NCBI RefSeq assembly: GCF_036365525.1
Contig: NW_027140645.1
Span: forward strand, 1-64,000
Origin: Heterodontus francisci
Lineage: Eukaryota
DNA: 64,000 nucleotides
Direction: 5' to 3'
A program made the translations under genes and the position numbers. This document shows positions 3,220 through 49,420 of this stretch, piece by piece. The notes beneath the pieces are model-generated. The model was given only the letters and a program-made list of their open reading frames with translations. It was not told where the DNA came from and did no database searches. How positions within the stretch are numbered: position 1 is the first letter of the stretch; every line of letters starts with the position of its first letter.

Positions 3220-3284
3220 TTCAAGCTGCCTCCAACAGCTTCTATCCCACGGGTTATTCTGAATGACGAAGCTCCCTTTGTTGT
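3220..3284 (-). CDS. UQCRC2: UQCRC2 exon 4 (65 bp)
   Basis: tttacag|ACA ACA AAG GGA GCT TCG TCA TTC AGA ATA ACC CGT GGG ATA GAA GCT GTT GGA GGC AGC TTG AA|gtaag = TTKGASSFRITRGIEAVGGSL. Confidence 0.96.
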
Positions 3285-4120
3285 CTGTAAAACAGAAAAA
3301 GCTTTGGTTAAAACTAAAAGACTACAGTTGCTAACAGAATTCTGTACTCTAAATTTCACAGAAAAATGGAAAGTTTATACATTTTAAGATGTGACAAAAT
3401 TAATCTCTGTTAAAAGTACGTTGAGGAATGCAAGCACAGCAATTGGAGAGTTCAGTGTGGTGCACTGAGAACACATTTTACCGAGGGAACAACAGATAGC
3501 TACATATGTGCTACATAGAGGATAATGGATAACCAGAACTATGCTTCAAGGCAGTAATACTACAAGACAGTTTGTGTGAATTTAACCAATGCACCCAGAT
3601 TCCAAAATACATTGTTAAATGAGGACATTATATCAGTAATAGCAATGACAGAAAATTAGTCAGAATTCCAGCTCCTGATCAATATCCAGTGATTCCTTTG
3701 CAGGTGAGGCCACGATCAGACATTGTTGTGATGCCCAACAGAGTTGAATAGCCTGGCAACATTTCCCCAGAATCACAATGAGAAATGGCCACTCAGAAAA
3801 TGAACCAGAGAACATCCGACACCAGCAGAATTGTATCCCAGCAAGTGGCATTGGGAGAGAGGGGAGGATAGGTGAGAAAACCCAGGGATAGGGGTGGGGA
3901 AAACACTCCCCTTTACCCATACACATACAAATGTAAGCGTGAACCAGATTAATTTCAATTAGACTGTTTAAAACAATCTACCCCACTCAGGATGGTGAAA
4001 GCAAACATAATATATCTCTGATTTAAAACAGATGACATATCGAGAAAGAAATTTTGAAAATGTGTTGCAAAGGTGAAAAGCTGTTCAAGGAGCTAAGCTT
4101 TCTGTTAAAACTTTACTTAC

Positions 4121-4270
4121 CAGGTTTGCTCCCAGGCGAAGGACATGAGTGATGCCCAAGTTACTGGCACTCTCATACCTGCTGCCTGCCTTTATAAAGA
4201 CGCCAATCTTTGAGGTTGGTGAGTAGTTCTCCAGGGAGGCAATTACCAATCCATTTGGCAATTTGGACAC
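4121..4270 (-). CDS. UQCRC2: UQCRC2 exon 3 (150 bp), cytochrome b-c1 complex core protein 2, M16 peptidase-like N-domain
   Basis: ORF 4085..4270 [50 protein letters not shown]; ctgcag acceptor and gtaagt donor. Confidence 0.97.
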
Positions 4271-4599
4271 CTGCAGGGGAAAAATTCAGTCCACATAAAG
4301 ACTTGATTATCCATATTAAATTTAAAATCCTGAGTCTGCACATGTTTTCAACTTAATTTTCTGTTATGATTTTTGGTCACACCTTTTAACTCAACATTTA
4401 ACATTGAATATGCCTATTTAATAAGCTAAAATGGGAATTCCACTATGTAAACAGGTCCTGGTAACACGGTAGTTGCAGGCTGTGACCACTAGGTGGTGGT
4501 TTAGTTTCAATGTTTTATCTAACACACAAATACCACATGTACAAAACAGTCGAATCATAGTCTGATTTATTAACTGGACAGCAAAATAAACACTTATCT

Positions 4600-4930
4600 C
4601 CAGGGATTTGAGTACATAATCTAGGCTGACACCTCAGGGCAATAGTAAAGGAGTGCTGCACTGTTGGAAGTGCTGTCTTTTGGATTACACGGAGGTCCAG
4701 ATACCGCTTCAAACAAGAGCTGGGAAGTTCTCCCAAAGCCCTGGCCAACATTTAGTCATCAACCAACATTACAAACAAACAGAATATCTGGTCAGTCATC
4801 TCACTGCTATCTGTGGGAGCTTTCTGTGCACAAATTGGCTACCACATTTCCCTACAACAGTAACTACAATTCAAAAGAAATTCACGAGATGTGACTTCAG
4901 GCCATCTTGAGGACATGAAAGGTGCATTTA
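4600..4930 (+). mobile_element. Deu-domain SINE, partial
   Basis: Same core and tail as 44823-45201. Confidence 0.6.
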
Positions 4931-5717
4931 AATCATCAGGACAGGCATATAGTGCCTTGGTTTAGCTCCATGCAAAGTATTTCTAATATTTAATTCCAAT
5001 TGTTTTTCCTTGGTAATTTTTCTCCCTCCCTTCCTCTCCTGAAAGTACTGATTCCTCGGTGGGCAGTTCCACAGAACCCTTGCTCCCTCTAGTATCTTGC
5101 CCCAATGGTCAATCTTCACATGCAAGCCTAGACAGCGAGGGAGCTAAAAAGCCACAGCTATGTTCCTACCCTCACCCTGGCTGAAGTCAGCTAACTCAGC
5201 ACCAAAGGATTGAACCTGGGACCTTCTGGTCCACAGACTCAACTACTCGCCAGATCAATGAACCAAGCCCAAACCATCTTAATATTTTTTCCCTTCGGGG
5301 ATGTGTGAACAGCAATTAAAAGATGTACAAGTGCTCAAGTCTTGTGAAGCTGTGCGAAAATTGTCTGTCACATTTCCTACACTGCAACAGTGATTACACT
5401 TCATAAGTATTTCATTGACTGCAAAGTGCTGAGACGTCCGGTGGTCGTGACGTGTTACATAAACGCAAGTCTTTCTTTTTCTTTAAAGAGCAAATTGAAC
5501 GCGTGATGCGGATCATAACAATACAGAAAGTGCAGACCACAAGCAACCTCAGCGGCATGCAGCACACTGTTACAATATATACTAGGGCACCTTCATGGAC
5601 ATCAGCTATCTGCTCAAAGTAGCACAAAGCCGTGATGCCATTGAGGGGTTTGCTCAAAAAGATGATCAAGGCAAAATCACATTTCTGGAAAAGAAGTTGC
5701 GACTAGTGTTCACTGAC

Positions 5718-5807
5718 CTGCAGCTCCTGAGGTGGAAGGTGTAGTTTCTCTGCAGCTGCTGTAAACTCATACTGAGGCACAGCTTTGGGTGAATAAAGCC
5801 TCTTTGT
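5718..5807 (-). CDS. UQCRC2: UQCRC2 exon 2 (90 bp, or 84 bp if the downstream AAG acceptor is used)
   Basis: tttgatttcag|ACA AAG AGG CTT TAT TCA...CAG GAG CTG CAG|gtcagt = TKRLYSPKAVPQYEFTAAAEKLHLPPQELQ, similar to human RFYS...PPQPQDLE; phase 0 at both ends. Confidence 0.9.
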
Positions 5808-7324
5808 CTGAAATCAAAAATTCACGACAATCAATTGAAAGATTTCAGAAAGGCCAGGACACCTGTCCTGGAAACCTCGATGAAGGTTTTTGCTCCATTT
5901 GTTTTTAATATGTATTTAAATAGTAGAAGAAACTAAAGCTCCATTTCACATCTCATGATTGAAAGATCATTTCCAGTCCAAAGTTTGGAGCAAGCTGATT
6001 TTTTAACAGATTATAACCCATAATTGTTAAAGTTCTACAAAAGCAAAATACTGCGCATGTTGGAAATACATAGAGAGGGGAACAGAGTTAACATTTCAGG
6101 TTGATGGTCTCTCCATTTGCCTTACACCATCATTCCTTTCGTCATTTAATCTTTCCTGCCTTCCACCCTATTGCAGGCCTTCCCTCCTGTTCTTCCCACC
6201 CCCCCTCCCTGCCTCTGTGCTTGCTTAAAACCTCTTCCATCCCTAAATCTCTCCAATTCTGATGAAAAAACATTGACCCGAAACATTATCTGTTTCTCAC
6301 TCGGCAGACGCTGCCTGACCCAATGACTGTTTCCAGCATTTTCTGTTTTTAAATATGAGTTAAACTTTTAATGATTAGTGACAGTACAATACAGACCACA
6401 TAAATTGTTCTTCAAGGGCAATTAGGGATGGGCAATAAATGCTGGCCTGGCCAGTGATGCCCACATCCCATGAATGAATAAAAAAAACTGTTATTGTTTC
6501 AGCTTTAGCTACTTTTCCTGGTCTACATTAGAAGGTGGGTGACCATCCTGCTCCACTACTGCTGTTCTGAGCAGGAACTGCCCGACAGGTGGCCAGATAT
6601 AGCTCCCCTCCTTCTGACCTCCCTCAGCTGCTCTTTACAGTGCAGATCTCAACACAGGAACTCAATGCAGTATGCACTACTGCTCCATGGTACAACCAGG
6701 TGCTACACCACAACCAGAAGTTTTAAACTAGTTTAGTTTTCAACTTGCTAAATCGGCTTTGAATGCTATATTGCTATGATTTTCACCTATCAGTTATGAA
6801 TCAAAAATGAACCATCCTTAAAAAAAGAAACCAGAATCATAAAAATGACAAAGTAAGTGGCCATTTGGCCCATCTTGTCTATGCTGGTGCTAACTATTCA
6901 ACTGGGGCTTTTTAGATCAATCGCTTTTCTCATTATCATTTCTATTACAGTCTACTCTTGACAAATCAAAGCGCTATTCTCGAAGAAAATAATCAAATTA
7001 ACTATTAATTCAAATAATCCAGTTATTGAAATTAAACCACTTTTCATTAACAGCTTTTTCCTATCAAATTTCCTTTTAAGTTGTACTAGAATCCAGCCTC
7101 AATAATCGCTTGTGGTTCCTTATCTTAACGAACCACGGTACAAAATTTCTAACTTCCCTCTCCTTCTAGCTGAGTAAATATCCACTCATTAGTGACCTTA
7201 CAACCAAGTCGTCACCGTTTACCCGCTCAAAAACTTTCACAATTTTGTAAATCTTCCCTGCAATTTAGAGAATTTTCACTGCCCCCTTTCCATGGATCTA
7301 ATATCCATGGAAATATCCATCTAA

Positions 7325-7610
7325 TGTCAGTTGCCAGCGATCGCCAGAGCTGGCGGGCAGCCTTAAAGGCGGGGCTAAAGCGTGGCGAGTCGAAGAGACT
7401 TAGCAGTTGGCAGGAAAAAAGACAAAAGTGCAAGGGGAGAGCCAACTGCGTAACAGCCCCGACAACCAATTTTATCTGCAGCACCTGTGGAACAGTCTGT
7501 CACTCTAGTATTGGCCTTTATAGCCACTCCAGGCGCTGCTTCACAAACCACTGACCACCTGCAGGCGCTTACCCATTGTCTCCCGAGACAAGGTGGCCAA
7601 AGAAGAAGAA
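7325..7610 (+). mobile_element. RTE-clade LINE 3' fragment
   Basis: SVASDRQSWRAALKAG...FICSTCGTVCHSSIGLYSHSRRC (C-terminal zinc knuckle) and (GAA)n tail; near copy of 8515-8800. Confidence 0.85.
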
Positions 7611-7845
7611 TATCCTTCCTATAACAAAGTGTCCAGAACTGTGTGCAATATTCCAACCAATGTCTTGAGCAAATTCAACACAAATTCCTTGCTTTTGTAT
7701 CTAATGTCCCTCTATATATTCCCACTTACCTGTTGTGATACTCAAGTTATTGTCTTTTTTGTGCCAGAAGCGATCAAGGTAAAGTCGAGATAGGATGTTT
7801 AACATTGTTGATGCAAAGTGACATTTATATGAGAATTAAGTAGCA

Positions 7846-8800
7846 ATCCTGCCACCTTCCATGCGGCTCACATGGCCAAGCCATCTCAAGCGCCGCTGAC
7901 TCAGTAGGATGTATATGCTGGGGATGTTGGCCGCCTCAAGGACATCTGTGTTGGATATACGGTCCTGCCACCTGATGCCAAGAATTCTCCGGAGGCAGCG
8001 AAGATGGAATGAGTTGAGACGACACTCGTGGCTGACATACGTTGTCCAGGCCTCGCTGCCGTAGAGCAAGATACTGAGGAGTGGGAGTCAGGCTTGAAAC
8101 ACTCGGACTTTTGTGTTCCGTGTCAGTGCGCCATTTTCCCCACACCCTCTTGGCCAGTCTGGACATAGCAGCGGACGCCTTTCCCATGCGCTTGTTGATT
8201 TCTGCTTTGGGAGACAGGTTACTGGTGATAGTTGATCCCAGGTAGGTGAACTCTTGAACCACTTGCAGAGCGTGGTCGCCGATAATGATGGATGGAGCAT
8301 TTCTGACGTCCTGTCCCATGATGTTCGTTTTCTTGAGGCTGATGGTTAGACCAAATAGGCCATGTGAACCGCATGGAAGATGACAGGATCCCCAAGGACA
8401 CATTGTACAGCGAGCTCATCACTGGTATCAGCCCCACCGGCCGTCCATGTCTCCGCTTTAAAGACGTCTACAAACGCAACATGAAGTCCTGTGACATTGA
8501 CCACAATTCGTGGGAGTCAGTTGCCAGTGATCGCCAGAGCTGGCGGACAGCCATAAGGGTGGGGCTAAAGAGTGGCGAGTCGAAGAGACTTAGCAGTTGG
8601 CAGGAAAAAAAGACAGAAGTGCAAAGAGAGAGCCAACTGTGTTACAGCCCCGACAACCAATTTTATCTGTAGCACCTGTGGAAGAGTCTGTCACTCTAGA
8701 ATTGGCCTTTATAGTCACTCCAGTCGCTGCTCCACAAACCACTGACCACCTCCAGGTGCTTACCCATTGTCTCTCGAGACAAGGAGGACAAAGAAGAAGA
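7846..8800. mobile_element. RTE-clade LINE with inverted 5' portion (7846-8357 minus; 8358-8800 plus)
   Basis: Minus: FGLTISLKKT...FTYLGS...LYGSEAW...LRWLGHVSRM; plus: GHVNRMEDDRIPKDTLYSEL...GRPCLRFKD, then (GAA)n tail. Confidence 0.88.
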
Positions 8801-9472
8801 AAGAGCAATTGAACCACATTTATTGATGAATAATCACAGTATAACAAATACTGTAAAGATAATAAAAATGCCGAACAAACTTGTTGAAAATAAATTTCCC
8901 CTCGCCATCCCAAAACCATCGTTAAATTAGAAATATAAAACATAAGGCTCTGTCCCTAAAGACAGTGTAAGGATAGTGCAGCTGTTGCTATCTCACAATA
9001 ACCTTTGCAATGTCAAGATCCTACACCAGTACTGCTGCAGTGACTGGTTTGGGATATATAGCAATGTATTTATTTAAAATGCTATGAATTTGCAGAAGAG
9101 ATCCTGGAAATGGGAGAATTTGGGGTTTGTGACTGGTTTAACTGAGCAGTGAGAGGCTGAATCTCTCCATTTCACCCAGTGGCGGGATGACCTTCAGTAA
9201 CCTCACGGCGCTCGTCCTGGTCACCGGGTGTCCCGGTCACCGCGCTTCCAACTGCATTCAGCAGCCGGACTGTGCTTACTGAGGATCAGTATGGGTTCAG
9301 GGGCGAGTCACCGCCGGGAAGGCCGAGCGGCCGCTCCTACCCGGGCAGCGGCCTAGGCCGCACCGGGGTCACCGGGTTATTTTCCGTTTGCGGGCTCTAC
9401 GGATAAGAAACCGGGCGCTTATTGCCGAGTAATGACTAGTCCCTCAGCAGGGATCCGGAAAGGGACACTTAC

Positions 9473-9517
9473 AGCAAGGTTTGCGAGCGCAGAATTCACT
9501 CTCCTCACCAACCTCAT
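9473..9517 (-). CDS. UQCRC2: UQCRC2 exon 1 coding part (mitochondrial presequence MRLVRRVNSALANLA)
   Basis: ATG at 9517 in a CpG-rich region; 15 codons, Arg-rich with no acidic residues, followed by gtaagt donor; phase 0 joins exon 2. Confidence 0.88.
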
Positions 9518-9544
9518 CCTCTCCGCGTCGCCTCCCCCGACTCA

Positions 9545-9800
9545 GACACACACAATATGGCGGCCAACCAGCGACTGCGCTTGACACACACAATATGGCG
9601 GCCAACCAGCGACTGCGCTTGACACACACAATATGGCGGCCAACCAGCGACTGCGCTTGACACACACAATATGGCGACCTACGCGCGACTGCTCTTGACA
9701 CATACAGTATGGCAGCTCGCCAGCAACCAGTGGTGTGACACATACAATATGGCGGTCCACCAGCTACCGCCTCAAAGACACACACAATATGGCGGCCGTT
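9545..9800 (+). repeat. 38-40 bp tandem repeat, 7 copies, each carrying a YY1-like CAANATGGCGGC motif
   Basis: Unit gacacacacaatatggcggccaaccagcgactgcgctt starts at 9545, 9583, 9621, 9659; diverged copies at 9697, 9737, 9777. Confidence 0.9.
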
Positions 9801-10024
9801 GCCCTTCCCACTCTATGTGGAGGAATCTGTCAATCACAGACAAGTAATGTTTAAAGGTTCTTGTGAACTGCTCTCGGTTTTAATATTACATTATACTAGA
9901 TTAGATACATAGTGTACATGTGCATTGCATTTTACTGTGTCATCTGTTGTATATGTTGCATTGTGTGTCACCTAGGTTACATTGTGTGATAATATTGTAT
10001 GTTATACTCTGCATATATACCATG

Positions 10025-10500
10025 CAAAAAAGTTCAGATGTTGAAAATCTAAAACAAAAATAGACAATACTGGAAGTATTCAGCACGTCAATCAACATCT
10101 GTGGATAAAACAGATTAGCTACTATTTTAAGTAAAGATTCTTCGACAGAACTGGCTATTATTGAAATAAAAAAACAGAAAATGCTGAAAATACTCAACAG
10201 TCTGGCAGCATCTGTGGAGAGAGAAACAGATTTAATGTTTCAGGTCAGTGACCCTTCTTCAAAACTCGATGAAAGTTCCCAGTTCTGATGAAGGGTCACT
10301 GACCTGAAACGTTAACTCTGCTTCTCTCTCCACTGATGCTGCCAGACCCGCTGAGTATTTCCAGCACTTTGTTTTTATTTCAGATTTCCAGCATCTGCAG
10401 TATTTTGCTTTTATTTTATTGGCTATTACTGATAACTTATCTGTTCTATCCATAGATGCTGGCTTCGTTGCTGACTGCTTCTGGCATTTTCTGCTTTCGT
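10025..10500. mobile_element. Cluster of Penelope-like element terminal-repeat remnants in inverted orientation
   Basis: About 105-bp arms 10162-10266 and 10281-10382 are imperfect inverted repeats; the same sequence recurs at about 6040-6350, 15050-15690, 49950-50075 and 57230-57355; it carries a hammerhead core as in PLE pseudo-LTRs. Confidence 0.65.
10281..10317 (+). ncRNA. Minimal type I hammerhead ribozyme motif
   Basis: AGTT-CTGATGA-A-GGGTC(act)GACCT-GAAAC-GTT-AACT: stem I AGUU/AACU, conserved CUGAUGA and GAAA boxes, stem II hairpin, palindromic ACGU stem III. Confidence 0.65.
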
Positions 10501-10829
10501 TGTAAAATCAAGCTCGGAAGATCGCTAGTTCCATTCCATTTATAAATTATTAAACTTGTGTTAAACTTGTATTAAACCTAAATTATTACCTTGTGTAGGG
10601 CATGGACTTCCTATCTATAAACTTTACTTCCTGTTCTCATTACTTTTAATCATACTTTTGTGTCAACATTTACCACTGTACATTACCGTGTCAATATTTC
10701 CCATTCCTATTTCCTATGTTAACTGTTACAATGTTGTTATTGGTTCTGGTTCAGTCACTATCTTACATATAAAGTTAAATTCATCAGTTGATCATAGACG
10801 ATGCCATTGCAATTTATTAGTCGTTTATT

Positions 10830-14610: not shown

Positions 14611-15265
14611 ATAATAAACAAACAATTATTAATGCCATCCAGGATGCAACCTCTGAAAGAATGAAAGATTTGTATTTATATAGCACCCTTCAGGATGACC
14701 AAATGTGCCAAAGCGTTTAACAGCCAAGGAAGTACTTTTTGAAGTGTTGTCCTATAGAAACTACATTATCTTATATTACTAATTAATTACTAATGTAGGA
14801 TTACCCTGTGGTGTCACCCGTTGCGAAAGCCAGATATAGTCGAGCTGATAAACCATGCAATCATTTAGAAATAAATTGGATGTTGCATGGCCGGGCATGG
14901 CAGTCATTCTGAGTGAAATGAGCTTCAGATGGACCAGACTGAACATTGAGAGCATGACTGGCCTTTTTTTATTTTTTTTTATTTTTTTGTTTTATTTTTT
15001 AAACCACGTACTTGCCTTAAACTTGGTTTTTCATGTTGTGCTTTTGGACAGAGCTGCTCATCATTCTGCCATTAACACTGTCTCTGGACTCATGCTTTAT
15101 CTGTCACCACAACCATTAGCACTCCCCTTGTCCCATGACATCTTTGTCATTTAATTTCTCCTGCCCTATCACACACCTTCCCTTTTATTCTCATTCCCCA
15201 CTCCCCCTTCACTTGCTTAAAACCTATTACATTTCTAACCTTTGCCAGTTCTGATGAAAGGTCAC

Positions 15266-15588
15266 AGAGATACAGCACCGAAACAGGCCCTTCGGCCCAC
15301 TGAGTCCACGCTGACCATCAACCACCCATTTATACTAATCCTACATGAATCCCATTTTCCCTCTCACATCCCCACCTTCCCTCAATTCTCCTACCACCTA
15401 CCTACACTAGGGGCAATTTTCTTTTAACAATGGCCAATTTATCTATCAACCCGCAAGTCTTTTGGCTTGTGGGAGGAAACCGGAGCACCCGGAGGAAACC
15501 CACGCAGTCACAGGGAGAACTTACAAACTCCACACAGACAGTACCCAGAACCGAACTCGGGTCGCTGGAGCTAACCGCTGCGCCGCCC
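15266..15588 (-). mobile_element. V-SINE (HE1-like tRNA SINE)
   Basis: Head ggcggcgcagcggttagc, V core gtgtggagtttg...gggtgctccggtttcctcccac, CR1-like tail gggccgaagggcctgtttc. Confidence 0.85.
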
Positions 15589-15689
15589 CTGAAACATTAA
15601 AACTCTGCTTCTGTCTCCACAGATGCTGCCGGACCTGCTGAGTATTTCCAGAATTTCTTGTTTTTCTTCCAGCACTTTCTGTTTGTATT

Positions 15690-22532: not shown

Positions 22533-22934
22533 AGATTCCTTGTGTGGTGGCAGACAGTTTGTGCACAGCAAGGTCCTGCAAATGGTCACTGAGCTCTGTG
22601 GAAAAGAAAATTGATGATGTGGGCGATACAGCAAATTTAACAGATTGATTCAGGTCTGCTCCGTTCTGCAGAGGGGCACAGTGTAGGAAAGGGCAAGAGG
22701 TTGGATGTATGTCTGGCATGATGTTTGGTAAAAGTAAATTTGGACCAATGTTTCTGTACTGAATGTAACGATTGCAATCAAAATTGAAAGCAGATTGGGT
22801 TGGGAGGTGGGGAGGGGTGACAGTGTGGAAGGACTCTTTCCCTGGGGTGAGGGGGTTGACAGTGCAGGGAGTGCTTTTTCCCCTCATCTGTCTAAGAGCA
22901 GAGAGAGAATTGATAAATATGTCTTTCTTTGCAG

Positions 22935-23197
22935 CCACCAAGACCTTGAACAGAGGAATTGCTGAGTTCATAGTGATGGCTGCAGATGCTGAACCGTTGG
23001 AGATTATTCTTCATTTACCTCTTCTCTGTGAAGACAAAAATGTGCCTTATGTTTTTGTAAGATCCAAACAGGCTCTGGGTCGTGCATGTGGGGTGTGTCG
23101 GCCAGTCATTGCATCCTCGGTCACCATAAAGGAAGGCTCTCAGCTGAAGCCACAGATCCAGTCTGTTCAACAAGCAGTTGAGCGTTTACTGGTTTGA
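22935..23197 (+). CDS. SNU13: SNU13 (NHP2L1/15.5K, L7Ae-family kink-turn binding protein) exon 3 to stop
   Basis: ttctttgcag|CC ACC AAG...: [54 protein letters not shown]...VERLLV*, near-identical to vertebrate SNU13. Confidence 0.97.
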
Positions 23198-46580: not shown

Positions 46581-48339
46581 TTAAACCTCCCATGACTCTG
46601 CTCGGGCACAATGGGCTGAATGACATTGGCTGTATCACTCAGTGACCCTGTTCACAGTTAGGAGGCGTAGAGGCAATTTAACTGTTTGTTGTAACCGGTA
46701 GAGAAGGATTTCAGTGCCACCTCTAAAGGCAAGATCAGCAGATCTCAAAAGGATTGTGGATGTGATATTATTAAATGAACAATTTTATGTCCAGCAATTT
46801 CCACAAGATGATTTAATCAGGCCGTCAGGCTCACAGTTTAAACATGGTGACGGTGGAGTGAAAAATTACTGGACTGAGAACCATCTCCATTTCAATTCCA
46901 AAATCCTATATTGACTTGGCTACTCTAATGCTCACAGTCTCCACTGGCACCAGACACTGTTCCTGCCTCCATCTGCACCAGTGATATTGTTGGCACAACC
47001 AGTCATCTTTCTGCTGAGGGATGGGAGCACACTGACTAGAGAGAGGGTTTGTGGAAGGAAAGCAATGCAAGGACAGAACACAAGTAAATTAAGAGAATCT
47101 TGGAACCATACCAAAAACAGACACTTGGGATTGCTTCATTATACAAGGCAAGGGGGGGGTGGGGAAGAGACACAGCTGTACATTAGAAACAGTCACAAAA
47201 GATTCCCAGTTTAAAACACAAACTTGGTTGCTCAGAGAGGTTTAAAAATCTGGGCCTATTTCACTTCAGGTGAATTGATAGAGGTTTATAAAATAGTTAA
47301 AACAAAACTTGCATTTATATAGCACCTTCAACATTGTAAAAACATCACAAAGCACTTCACAAGCATTTCTGACAGAGGAGATATCAGGGCAGGTGGCCAA
47401 AAGATTGGTCAGAGATAAATTTACAGAACATCCTGAAAGGAGGAGAGGGGTGGAGAGGTTTAGGGAGGGAATTCAAGCTTGGGGCCCTGGGCAGCTGAAG
47501 GCACGGCTACCAATGGTGGAGTGAAGAAGATTGGGGACGCACAGATACCAGAATTAGAGGAGTGCAGTGGGGCCGGAGGAGATGAGAGAGGTAGGGAGGG
47601 GCGGGGCCATGAGGGATCTGAAAACAATGATGAGAATTTTTAAATTGTGGTGTTGCTGGACTGGGAGATTTATAAAGAAAAGACAGAACCAGTGAAATGG
47701 CAGAGCAGGTTTGATGAGCTTTTCCTGCTGGAAGTTAATCTACAAACAATTTATTCAGGATCAAAATACTGTGAGGAAAGAAATTGCAGGGATATGGGTA
47801 AAGAGCAGGTGAGTGACACGAGCTGCACTGCTCTTTGAAAGAGCTGGTGCAGACTCGATGGGCCGAACTGCCTCCTTATCTGCTGTACAAGTCTCTGATT
47901 CTATATGAAATTGCTAGCACCGTGCACACCATAAAGAATTAACATACACAGAAATTATAACATAGAAACAGGCCATTTTGGCTCCTCAACCTGTGTTGGT
48001 GTTTATCCCCCACACGAGTAATATCCTAATCCCATGTGCCTATTGTCATATCCCTTTATCCCACTTTCCTTCAATCAAGTATCTAACCTCATCTTAAACG
48101 TTGGCCTGGCCCCTCATTCGATCACTAACTCCAGGAGTGCAGTTAATAACCCCACAACCCAGTGTGGAGAGAAAAAAAAAATAAAGTTTCTTCTTCTCTG
48201 TTCCAAAGCTTTTACATTTAATCTCCACCCTTAACCCCAACCACTGCTTTTATCAAATCCATCCCAGCAGTCTAAACGTCAAACACCTCCATTTTCAGGT
48301 CACTATGGGGAGGCAGCAGAACACAAGAATGTCCTTTAC

Positions 48340-49014
48340 CTTCTCAAAGTTCTGTTTTCTCGAGTGATCCTTTTCCAACCAGAGGACAACAGCCTCGAAG
48401 ACCATCTCCTCCGTGGTGATACTCAGCTCGTCGCTGGCGATAATTTCCGTCAGCTTCTCTGCCGACAGCGAGAGGAACTCCTCCTGCATGTGAACCACAC
48501 TGAAATGCTGCAGGATGTAGTCCAGGCTTTTGGTTTGCAGCTCCACGCAGGAGTGGGCCTCAGCGAAGCAGTGGATGCCCACACAGTTTGTCTCTTCCAT
48601 CTGCCGCTCCATGAACTTACAGCAGGCTTCCCGTACAGGCATGATGTCCAACAGGTTGGCAGCTGCCAGCAAGGCCTGGACATTGGCTCGTGTGATGAGC
48701 ACACGGGCTGTATAGGAATAGGCCACCAACAACCCCACCATCTGTGGCTCGACACCATTTATCGCCACCCGCTCCTGCCGGGACTCAACCAGGTCTGTGG
48801 AAAACATGGCCCTGAAGTAGGAACTGAAGGAGGCGAGAACGATGCGATGACAGGGGAATTCCTGACCGTCACAACACAGAATAACATCACAGAAAGCGTT
48901 GTTCAGTCGCAAGCTGTTGAGTCCATCCAGAACTTTGCTGGAATGCTCTGATTCGAGAAATAAGTAGTCCTCACACTCTAATTGGTTCCGAGTGTCCTCA
49001 GTGAGCAGTTCCAT
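48340..49014 (-). CDS. Kelch-like (BTB-BACK-Kelch, Cullin3 adaptor family) gene, BTB/BACK exon from ATG; exon acceptor at 49039
   Basis: FCDVILCCDGQEFPCHRIVLASFSSYFRAMF (BTB) and NCVGIHCFAEAHSC...EEMVFEAVVLW (BACK); summed exons 675+187+147+129+177+147+166+160 = 1788 nt = 595 aa + stop. Confidence 0.95.
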
Positions 49015-49420
49015 ATTACCCTCCTCCCAAAAATTACCCCTGTCAAATACAAGGGGACACATTAATTTATAAAAAGCCAACCCATCTCCCTTTGGCAAAG
49101 CTCACACCAGAGGATACAGGGTCAAGTAACACCTCATAGAATCTTACAGCAGGGCAGGCCATTCAGCCCATCCTGCTTCTTTGAAAGAGAGAGTCTGGGT
49201 ATGGTGTATTCTGCTGCCAACAGCCAGTAGAGTCTAATATAATTCCTTAACTCACTGGTAGCACCCTCACCTCAGACTGTGAAAGTCATAGGTTCAAATC
49301 CCACTCCAAGACTTCAGTGTATAATCCAGAGCAGTGCGCTGGGGCAGATAAGGTGTTAAACCAAGGCCCCAACTGCCCCTCGGGTGGATTTAAAAGATCT
49401 CATGGCCACTCATGCCACAT

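Follow-up and report, generated by a model that had tools for sequence, protein, structure and literature searches.

The minimal hammerhead motif upstream of UQCRC2 is very probably an inactive copy in a short Penelope insertion, where it is predicted to be paired shut by an inverted arm and is unlikely to cut or regulate anything. As judged from the DNA sequence, the segment that carries the motif is a stub of an endonuclease-bearing (EN+) Penelope-like retroelement (PLE). The locus is probably an ordinary, silent copy in a known insertion layout, and by itself it matters little, given that both the motif and the kind of insertion are known. The end statistics of the family bear on an open question, which is the origin of PLE inverted repeats and tails and the role of the hammerhead. 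On this point there is perhaps an even chance that the family's commonest product is a copy of the strong-stop type, for which synthesis would start at an RNA position of 100 or 135 nt and run off the 5′ end, with the copies made from two nicks, one from each start site, being joined.

The motif and the palindrome that contains it

The motif comprises 37 bases at 10281-10317 of the window (the whole 64-kb stretch of DNA that was analysed), and its letters are exactly as given in an earlier note that had proposed an intact ribozyme at this site. Stem I has four base pairs (10281-84 with 10314-17). The CUGAUGA box (10285-91) is followed by one extra unpaired A at 10292, and stem II is formed by five base pairs (10293-97 with 10301-05), of which the closing pair is G-U. 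The GAAA box is present, a self-complementary ACGU occupies 10309-12, and the predicted cut lies 3′ of 10313. Hammerhead positions such as C3 and U4 follow what we take to be the applicable numbering.

The two-box pattern occurs three times in the 64-kb window, where 0.31 occurrences are expected, and none of 100 shuffles reached this number. At one of the matches (15251), the second box is contributed by an inserted repeat. A very common, SINE-like interspersed repeat of ∼320 bp (15272-15587) sits in the stem II loop of another hammerhead copy; the same repeat also breaks the ORF of L082, a long family copy described below. Among eight profile matches in the window, 10281-10317 ranks first, in agreement with the claim that it is the best-preserved copy there. 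A covariance-model search of the kind advised in the earlier note gave no match to any Rfam hammerhead model up to an E-value of 10, an outcome that would be expected for a motif lacking helix III. The best Rfam match was mir-3202, at 35 bits against a cut-off of 90. This match reflects the long hairpin only, and a microRNA identity was dropped.

A head-to-head palindrome of 255 bp (10165-10419), which had been missed previously, has the motif at the head of its right arm. Arms of 67 nt (10200-10266 and 10281-10347) are 91% complementary, pairing extends to 10162/10382, and the fold of 10165-10385 has a predicted free energy of −132 kcal/mol (z −20). The right arm corresponds to the end of a Penelope-like terminal repeat, tail included, and begins a few bases ahead of the hammerhead. 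On the minus strand, the left arm carries a second hammerhead (10230-10266) with C3>U, ACGU>ACAU, and one broken stem I pair. Since a 13-bp target-site duplication (TSD) flanks the unit, the inserted segment is 10165-10419. The coordinates of these and other features are collected in Table 1.

Table 1. Features of the young and older stubs and of the transcripts around them (window coordinates)
Feature	Position	Strand	Remarks
UQCRC2 exon 1	9473..9574	-	RNA contig coverage; ATG at 9517
Upstream exon piece, divergent transcript	9738..9843	+	RNA contigs; start from contig only
Intron of divergent transcript, 612 nt, most likely	9844..10455	+	GT..AG; holds whole young palindrome
Older stub, tail-bearing arm	10033..10155	-	E 6e-14 on pre-insertion site
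Target-site duplication, left copy, 13 bp	10152..10164	.	One mismatch between copies
Young stub, left inverted arm, no tail	10165..10266	-	Profile match E 8e-28
Junction filler between arm heads	10267..10275	.	Varies among family copies
Young stub, right arm	10276..10419	+	Profile match 10277-10406, E 5e-45
Minimal type I hammerhead	10281..10317	+	Both boxes intact, ACGU replacing stem III
One-sided tail, ∼35 nt	10383..10419	+	Limits approximate; left arm without tail
Target-site duplication, right copy, 13 bp	10420..10432	.	One mismatch between copies
Older stub, tail-less arm	10430..10506 (approx.)	+	E 1.3e-5; hammerhead core absent
Downstream exon piece, divergent transcript	10456..10702	+	RNA contigs; end from contig only

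The two arms of the young stub are only 88% alike, which places them at the 69th percentile of cross-locus pairs, and this likeness therefore does not establish that one RNA templated both arms. Relative to the family majority, the right arm has two private substitutions and the left arm ∼6-7, as read off the alignment without a significance test. The small number in the right arm could hint at preservation.

When 10165-10419 is removed in silico, an older and decayed stub of the same Penelope family is exposed around the insertion site. Its tail-bearing arm aligns with a score of 109.5, and the best of 300 shuffles scores 52. The tail-less arm, with a pairwise score of 52 against 49.5 for the best shuffle, is weak taken alone. 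The alignments indicate that the young stub landed in the centre of this older one. A longer fold-back copy of the family lies in UQCRC2 intron 1 (6039-6354) and carries its tail on the inverted arm.

The Penelope family and the formation of its short copies

To survey the family at random, 160 stretches of 10 kb (1.6 Mb in total) were taken at round coordinates from large contigs only and were compared with a profile of 29 copies. Among 151 profile matches, 121 arms extend to the 3′ region without being truncated by the start of a stretch. Tails are present on 58 of these arms and absent from 57 (6 are of other form), and 43 have a head-to-head partner. Simple scaling from the large contigs sampled to the 6.0-Gb genome gives an extrapolated number of ∼450,000 arms.

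A separate search for stubs returned 1752 candidates, of which 40 were scored and 30 loci fetched. The fetched loci share the stub layout but differ in their centres. This layout recurs at unrelated loci with different centres and arm lengths. Most of the young loci (25 of 30) have a TSD of their own, 8-17 bp long, and two share one flank; left arms range from none to >100 nt. The youngest subfamily (L161-L190) is highly uniform, with the same 129 nt at 37 of the 40 loci scored. Its members carry U4C in the catalytic box and combine recent activity with a weaker core; according to the accessible text of PMC3088659, the U4C variant is weaker in vitro.

The intactness of the motif is not special in this family. 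After 70 of the 121 random arms were set aside because they are incomplete or gapped over the motif, 6 of the 51 arms kept are as intact as 10281-10317, and 20 are so if U4C is allowed. In 89 arms, the closing pair of stem II is A-U (33), G-C (29), or G-U (20), and a 13-row alignment agrees. The other stem pairs are mostly invariant, and support from covariation thus rests on one pair. The CpG of ACGU is retained in 55 of 102 arms. Changes are less frequent in core columns (17/691, 2.5%) than in downstream columns (176/3701, 4.8%; p 0.006), a difference that subfamily structure and alignment bias can also produce. We read it as probable selection in source elements combined with alignment bias, and not as selection on each copy. 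An apparent family of arms with C3>U was rejected as a selection effect of rare words in the query; U occurs at this position in only 1 of 81 random arms.

Copies retrieved by means of upstream sequence include part of a 3′ UTR, then a GIY-YIG frame, and farther on a reverse transcriptase (RT), which bears out the proposal that the hammerhead is of the Penelope type. The GIY-YIG domain matches its Pfam model in one of four fragments (E 8e-5), and a second fragment gives an E-value of 0.048. One of the random stretches, L082, holds a partial tandem of repeat, ORF, and repeat that is broken by an inserted repeat. Its 626-amino acid open stretch matches RVT_1 (E 0.002) and GIY-YIG (E 0.003), with neither match reaching its Pfam cut-off. 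Protein atlas neighbours of the L082 protein, at 0.97, carry RVT_1, GIY-YIG, and HTH_animal; a PDB search with this protein gave no relevant match. In L082 and L058, the RT is followed by a C-terminal GIY-YIG domain with CCHH residues (CxxC between the tyrosine motifs and two later histidines), and a C-X4-C-X2-C linker precedes the GIY-YIG domain in L055, L056, L058, and L082. A CX2-5CxxC, zinc finger-like linker between RT and endonuclease marks the Neptune and Nematis clades, as described in the accessible part of PMC8557442. By domain order and linker motif, and with that source as reference, the family classifies as an EN+ PLE of the Neptune/Nematis type.

The partial-tandem copy itself (L082:1660-6013, minus strand) bears a hammerhead of the type found in the youngest subfamily, with U4C and a G-C closing pair. 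In this copy, several splice-acceptor-like tracts lie between the hammerhead region and the long frame.

The 5′ ends of the 121 arms, which are local profile boundaries with an error of a few bases, are concentrated at the start of the hammerhead. Relative to C3, 36 ends fall at −8 to −1, whereas 14 fall at −100 to −9 (p 1e-28) and 34 at 0 to +60 (p 4e-16). Selecting arms solely by their 3′ part gave a second set, in which 12 of 29 ends fall at −8 to −1. No pile-up is seen at the hammerhead cut site, where 3 of the 20 ends in +9 to +60 lie near the cut (p 0.52). In addition, 19 of 20 head-to-head pairs join an arm with a tail to an arm without one. The position of the ends, together with this pairing, suggests run-off copies that were primed from both nicks.

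Likeness of the stubs to long copies drops off at −3 to −5, and some solo stubs begin directly after the TSD with GTT or GGTT. Among random solo stubs, the TSD adjoins the start in 4 of 17. In the random sample, there is no excess of a cap-derived extra G at the 5′ junctions (G at −5 in 4/37 and at −4 in 7/37), and the G-G starts at some young loci were discarded as a cap signal because they are forced by the search query. At the inferred 5′ end of the RNA, long copies read C/T-C-A-G-T-T-C, which we take to resemble the initiator consensus.

The protein of an anole element cuts both DNA strands and extends them, begins synthesis at two sites within the RNA that determine the tail, and uses uncut RNA, as reported in the available text of PMC11167929. 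An inverted, 5′-truncated copy with a tail of 30-40 bp is a known layout (PMC8557442 and PMC3846280, in the portions available). Combined with the behaviour of the anole protein (PMC11167929), the pile-up of 5′ ends points to run-off from the 5′ end of the RNA, with both nicks serving as primers. In such a process, the element protein would nick both DNA strands ∼13 bases apart. Reverse transcription would begin at two internal sites, one that yields the tail and one that does not, in the front repeat of uncut RNA, and both cDNAs would run off the RNA 5′ end just ahead of the hammerhead and be joined head to head. We lean slightly toward this series of events, and we infer that the insertions derive from uncut RNA and stop at the first bases of the motif. 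If this model is true, then run-off accounts for the inverted-repeat-plus-tail layout of Penelope elements generally. The transcript would then open with the hammerhead, and the stubs would constitute a genome-wide record of where transcription begins.

A different route to the same stubs is possible, but we consider it rather unlikely. The inverted arm of a Penelope stub could arise by self-priming or fold-back, and the 5′-end pile-up would then mark a 3′ splice site, or a point at which synthesis stalls or folds back, instead of the start of the RNA. Self-priming on an antisense template is the preferred proposal in the accessible part of PMC3846280, and microhomology and short fillers are present at many centres, as this route would have it. 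Splicing would fit the branch-like CTAAC/CTAAT and the pyrimidine-rich stretch ahead of an AG at −4/−3 in long copies, and also an intron of Drosophila virilis that ends at helix I (PMC4209133, as far as available). However, the TSD-bounded solo stubs L110, L239, L171, and L187 start with the same bases and have neither an inverted arm nor an extra exon, and the strict pairing of tail with no tail (19/20) fits two separately primed strands. Among the 15 joints listed of 46, none is a splice joint into the 5′ edge of the hammerhead in element RNA.

It is quite improbable that a self-spreading, nonautonomous unit (SINE-, MITE-, or retrozyme-like) that is copied whole, and not the long element, accounts for the short copies and palindromes. 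The identity of 37/40 scored loci over 129 nt would be natural for such a unit, as would the observation that all 14 testable random palindromes have arms liker than the median cross-locus pair, and the stub may hold an internal promoter. Yet the letters that distinguish the youngest subfamily recur in the long copies L082, L065, L263, L168, and L178, and copies that are otherwise identical differ in their centre and in left-arm length. Head-to-tail arrays of the retrozyme kind are absent, and a fixed interior common to copies at different sites, as in MITEs, was not found among ∼50 palindromes inspected. Run-off from two nicks remains the reading that we prefer for the stubs.

Divergent transcription at UQCRC2 and the prospects for cleavage

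The identification of the neighbouring gene as UQCRC2 holds, since a match to cytochrome bc1 core protein 2 was obtained with its exon 3 (E 7e-21). Exons 9473-9574, 5716-5807, 4121-4268, and 3220-3284 of the minus strand are joined in RNA contigs, and the ATG starts a continuous frame across the joined exons. The motif lies 764 bases from this ATG, close to the ∼760 bp originally estimated. None of the runs is catalogued as RNA, and it is the spliced UQCRC2 contigs that show RNA in runs X1, X2, X3, and X6. The exon 2/3 joint (5708-5716, minus strand) has an 8-base ambiguity, and a GT..AG reading of it requires that the cut be shifted by 2.

Seven head-to-tail copies of a 38-40-nt unit occupy 9544-9797, at the promoter and 5′ end of UQCRC2, and this array is reached by both UQCRC2 exon 1 contigs and by the divergent exon. 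Each unit has an ATGGCGG core that is presumably YY1-like. The array is a possible tunable bidirectional promoter. Elsewhere in the window, an open frame at 22769-23194 (plus strand) resembles what we assume to be the C-terminal part of SNU13/15.5K, and another at 48298-49101 (minus strand) has the look, in our estimation, of a BTB-type domain.

Plus-strand transcription from the UQCRC2 promoter region crosses the motif, as the earlier note had supposed, and the motif is present there as part of an intron in contigs from one sample. Two contigs join 9843 to 10456, one from run X1 and one from run X2, with depths of 4 and 6 compared with 860-2500 for UQCRC2 contigs. The RNA evidence comprises four runs of one sample, and the joint occurs in two of the four among the rows listed. 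Assembled contigs carry no information on strand, start, or end, and read depth over the palindrome stems from paralogous copies. Because the skipped 612 bases read GT..AG on the plus strand, the low-depth RNA spanning 9738-10702 most likely represents divergent transcription from UQCRC2 followed by splicing, and the palindrome would lie within the intron that is removed.

The splice acceptor AG of this transcript (10454-10455) is supplied by the tail-less arm of the older stub. It is that arm's counterpart of a pyrimidine-tract/AG site of the family, which reads AG in 105 of 113 arms and TG in the young right arm (10334-10335). We regard it as evenly balanced whether a divergent noncoding transcript at UQCRC2 owes its intron and acceptor to two stub generations and, jointly, whether the run-off model of stub origin is correct. 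In this manner, stubs can provide a promoter-divergent transcript with a splice acceptor, and their inverted arm would at the same time neutralise the ribozyme. Given the ∼450,000 extrapolated arms, such neutralisation may also explain why so many intact hammerheads are tolerated.

The structural context of the motif disfavours cleavage. In the folding model, the left arm, which is transcribed first, pairs with the entire motif. The cost of the hammerhead shape, expressed as an ensemble penalty, is 2 kcal/mol for the motif alone, 33 kcal/mol in nascent RNA, and 45 kcal/mol in the whole element or intron; these values come from an equilibrium model, and proteins or fast splicing could open the hairpin. 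In a host pre-mRNA, the left arm would be made first, form a hairpin of ∼100 bp with the right arm, and leave with the intron. No intact partner hammerhead was found nearby on the plus strand among the profile matches in the window. Decay or interruption affects the copies at 6138-6354 and 14934-15672, and the old right arm has no core.

Minimal hammerheads are inactive in monomeric form and show weak cleavage when dimeric (PMC4209133, available text), and the hammerhead of the anole element cuts only with its protein (PMC11167929, likewise in part). The left-arm trap and the lack of a nearby partner on the same strand make cutting at 10313 unlikely, as predicted from the modelled folds. The suggestion that the motif could cleave antisense RNA is not supported, in view of this trap, a mutated partner on the opposite strand, the need for a dimer or a protein, and the unremarkable intactness of the copy. 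That a co-opted ribozyme, assisted by a second RNA or by the protein that the element encodes, cuts divergent UQCRC2 RNA within the intron, leads to its decay or termination, and so shapes promoter direction is highly improbable. The motif has the correct strand, lies within a transcribed intron, and combines an intact catalytic core with a right arm near the family majority sequence, but the upstream arm is predicted to trap it at 33-45 kcal/mol, a same-strand partner is absent nearby, and 6/51 random arms are equally intact. Correctly spliced contigs also exist, so that in at least some molecules either no cut occurs before splicing or splicing goes ahead in spite of it.

Comparison with known systems

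In the literature that was searched by title and opening of the abstract, none of the items describes these stubs; most subscription papers, Repbase, and supplements lie outside this search.

The family fits the class of PLE minimal hammerheads, and the copy at 10281-10317 is a variant of it at the G10.1-C11.1 pair. As characterized in the available text of PMC4209133, this class has CUGANGA and GAAA boxes, both of which are present here, and a short helix I (4-5 bp) and helix II, with which the family copies agree. An unpaired base between positions 9 and 10.1 is matched by the A at 10292, and a palindromic 15.2-16.2 segment without helix III is matched by the ACGU. The G10.1-C11.1 pair is highly conserved but lies outside the descriptor, and is replaced by G-U in this copy. 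According to the same portion of PMC4209133, such hammerheads are also known from the terminal repeats of the fish elements Xena, Poseidon, and Neptune, and are dispersed and numerous with some pairs close together on opposite strands, as is the case here. The present copy differs from those described there in its helix II of 5 bp and in its location within a fold-back that traps the motif, and the number of arms is far above the 4,000-9,000 hammerheads given for coelacanth and Xenopus.

Non-LTR retrozymes, as far as the accessible text of bioRxiv 10.64898/2026.07.22.740005 describes them, are likewise noncoding, carry a type I hammerhead, are related to Penelope repeats, and are reported from a cartilaginous fish. 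They form head-to-tail arrays with a hammerhead in each unit, whereas 10165-10419 is head-to-head and single, with a tail and a TSD.

In Anolis Poseidon PAc (PMC11167929), the hammerhead also precedes two tail-differing 3′ end points by ∼100-135 nt, and the insertions likewise span an uncut site. That element belongs to a different clade, and a genomic 5′-end pile-up and short palindromes are not described in the part of that paper that was available.

The closest correspondence is with EN+ PLE insertions, as portrayed in the available portions of PMC3846280, PMC8557442, and PMC2377424. The stub matches them in its head-to-head inverted arm, one-arm tail of 30-40 bp, and TSD, and the family matches them in its partial-tandem long copy, RT, CX4CX2C linker, and C-terminal GIY-YIG domain. 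Compared with those insertions, the present ones hold only the last 100-140 nt in each arm and no ORF, and their 5′ ends cluster at the first bases of the hammerhead.
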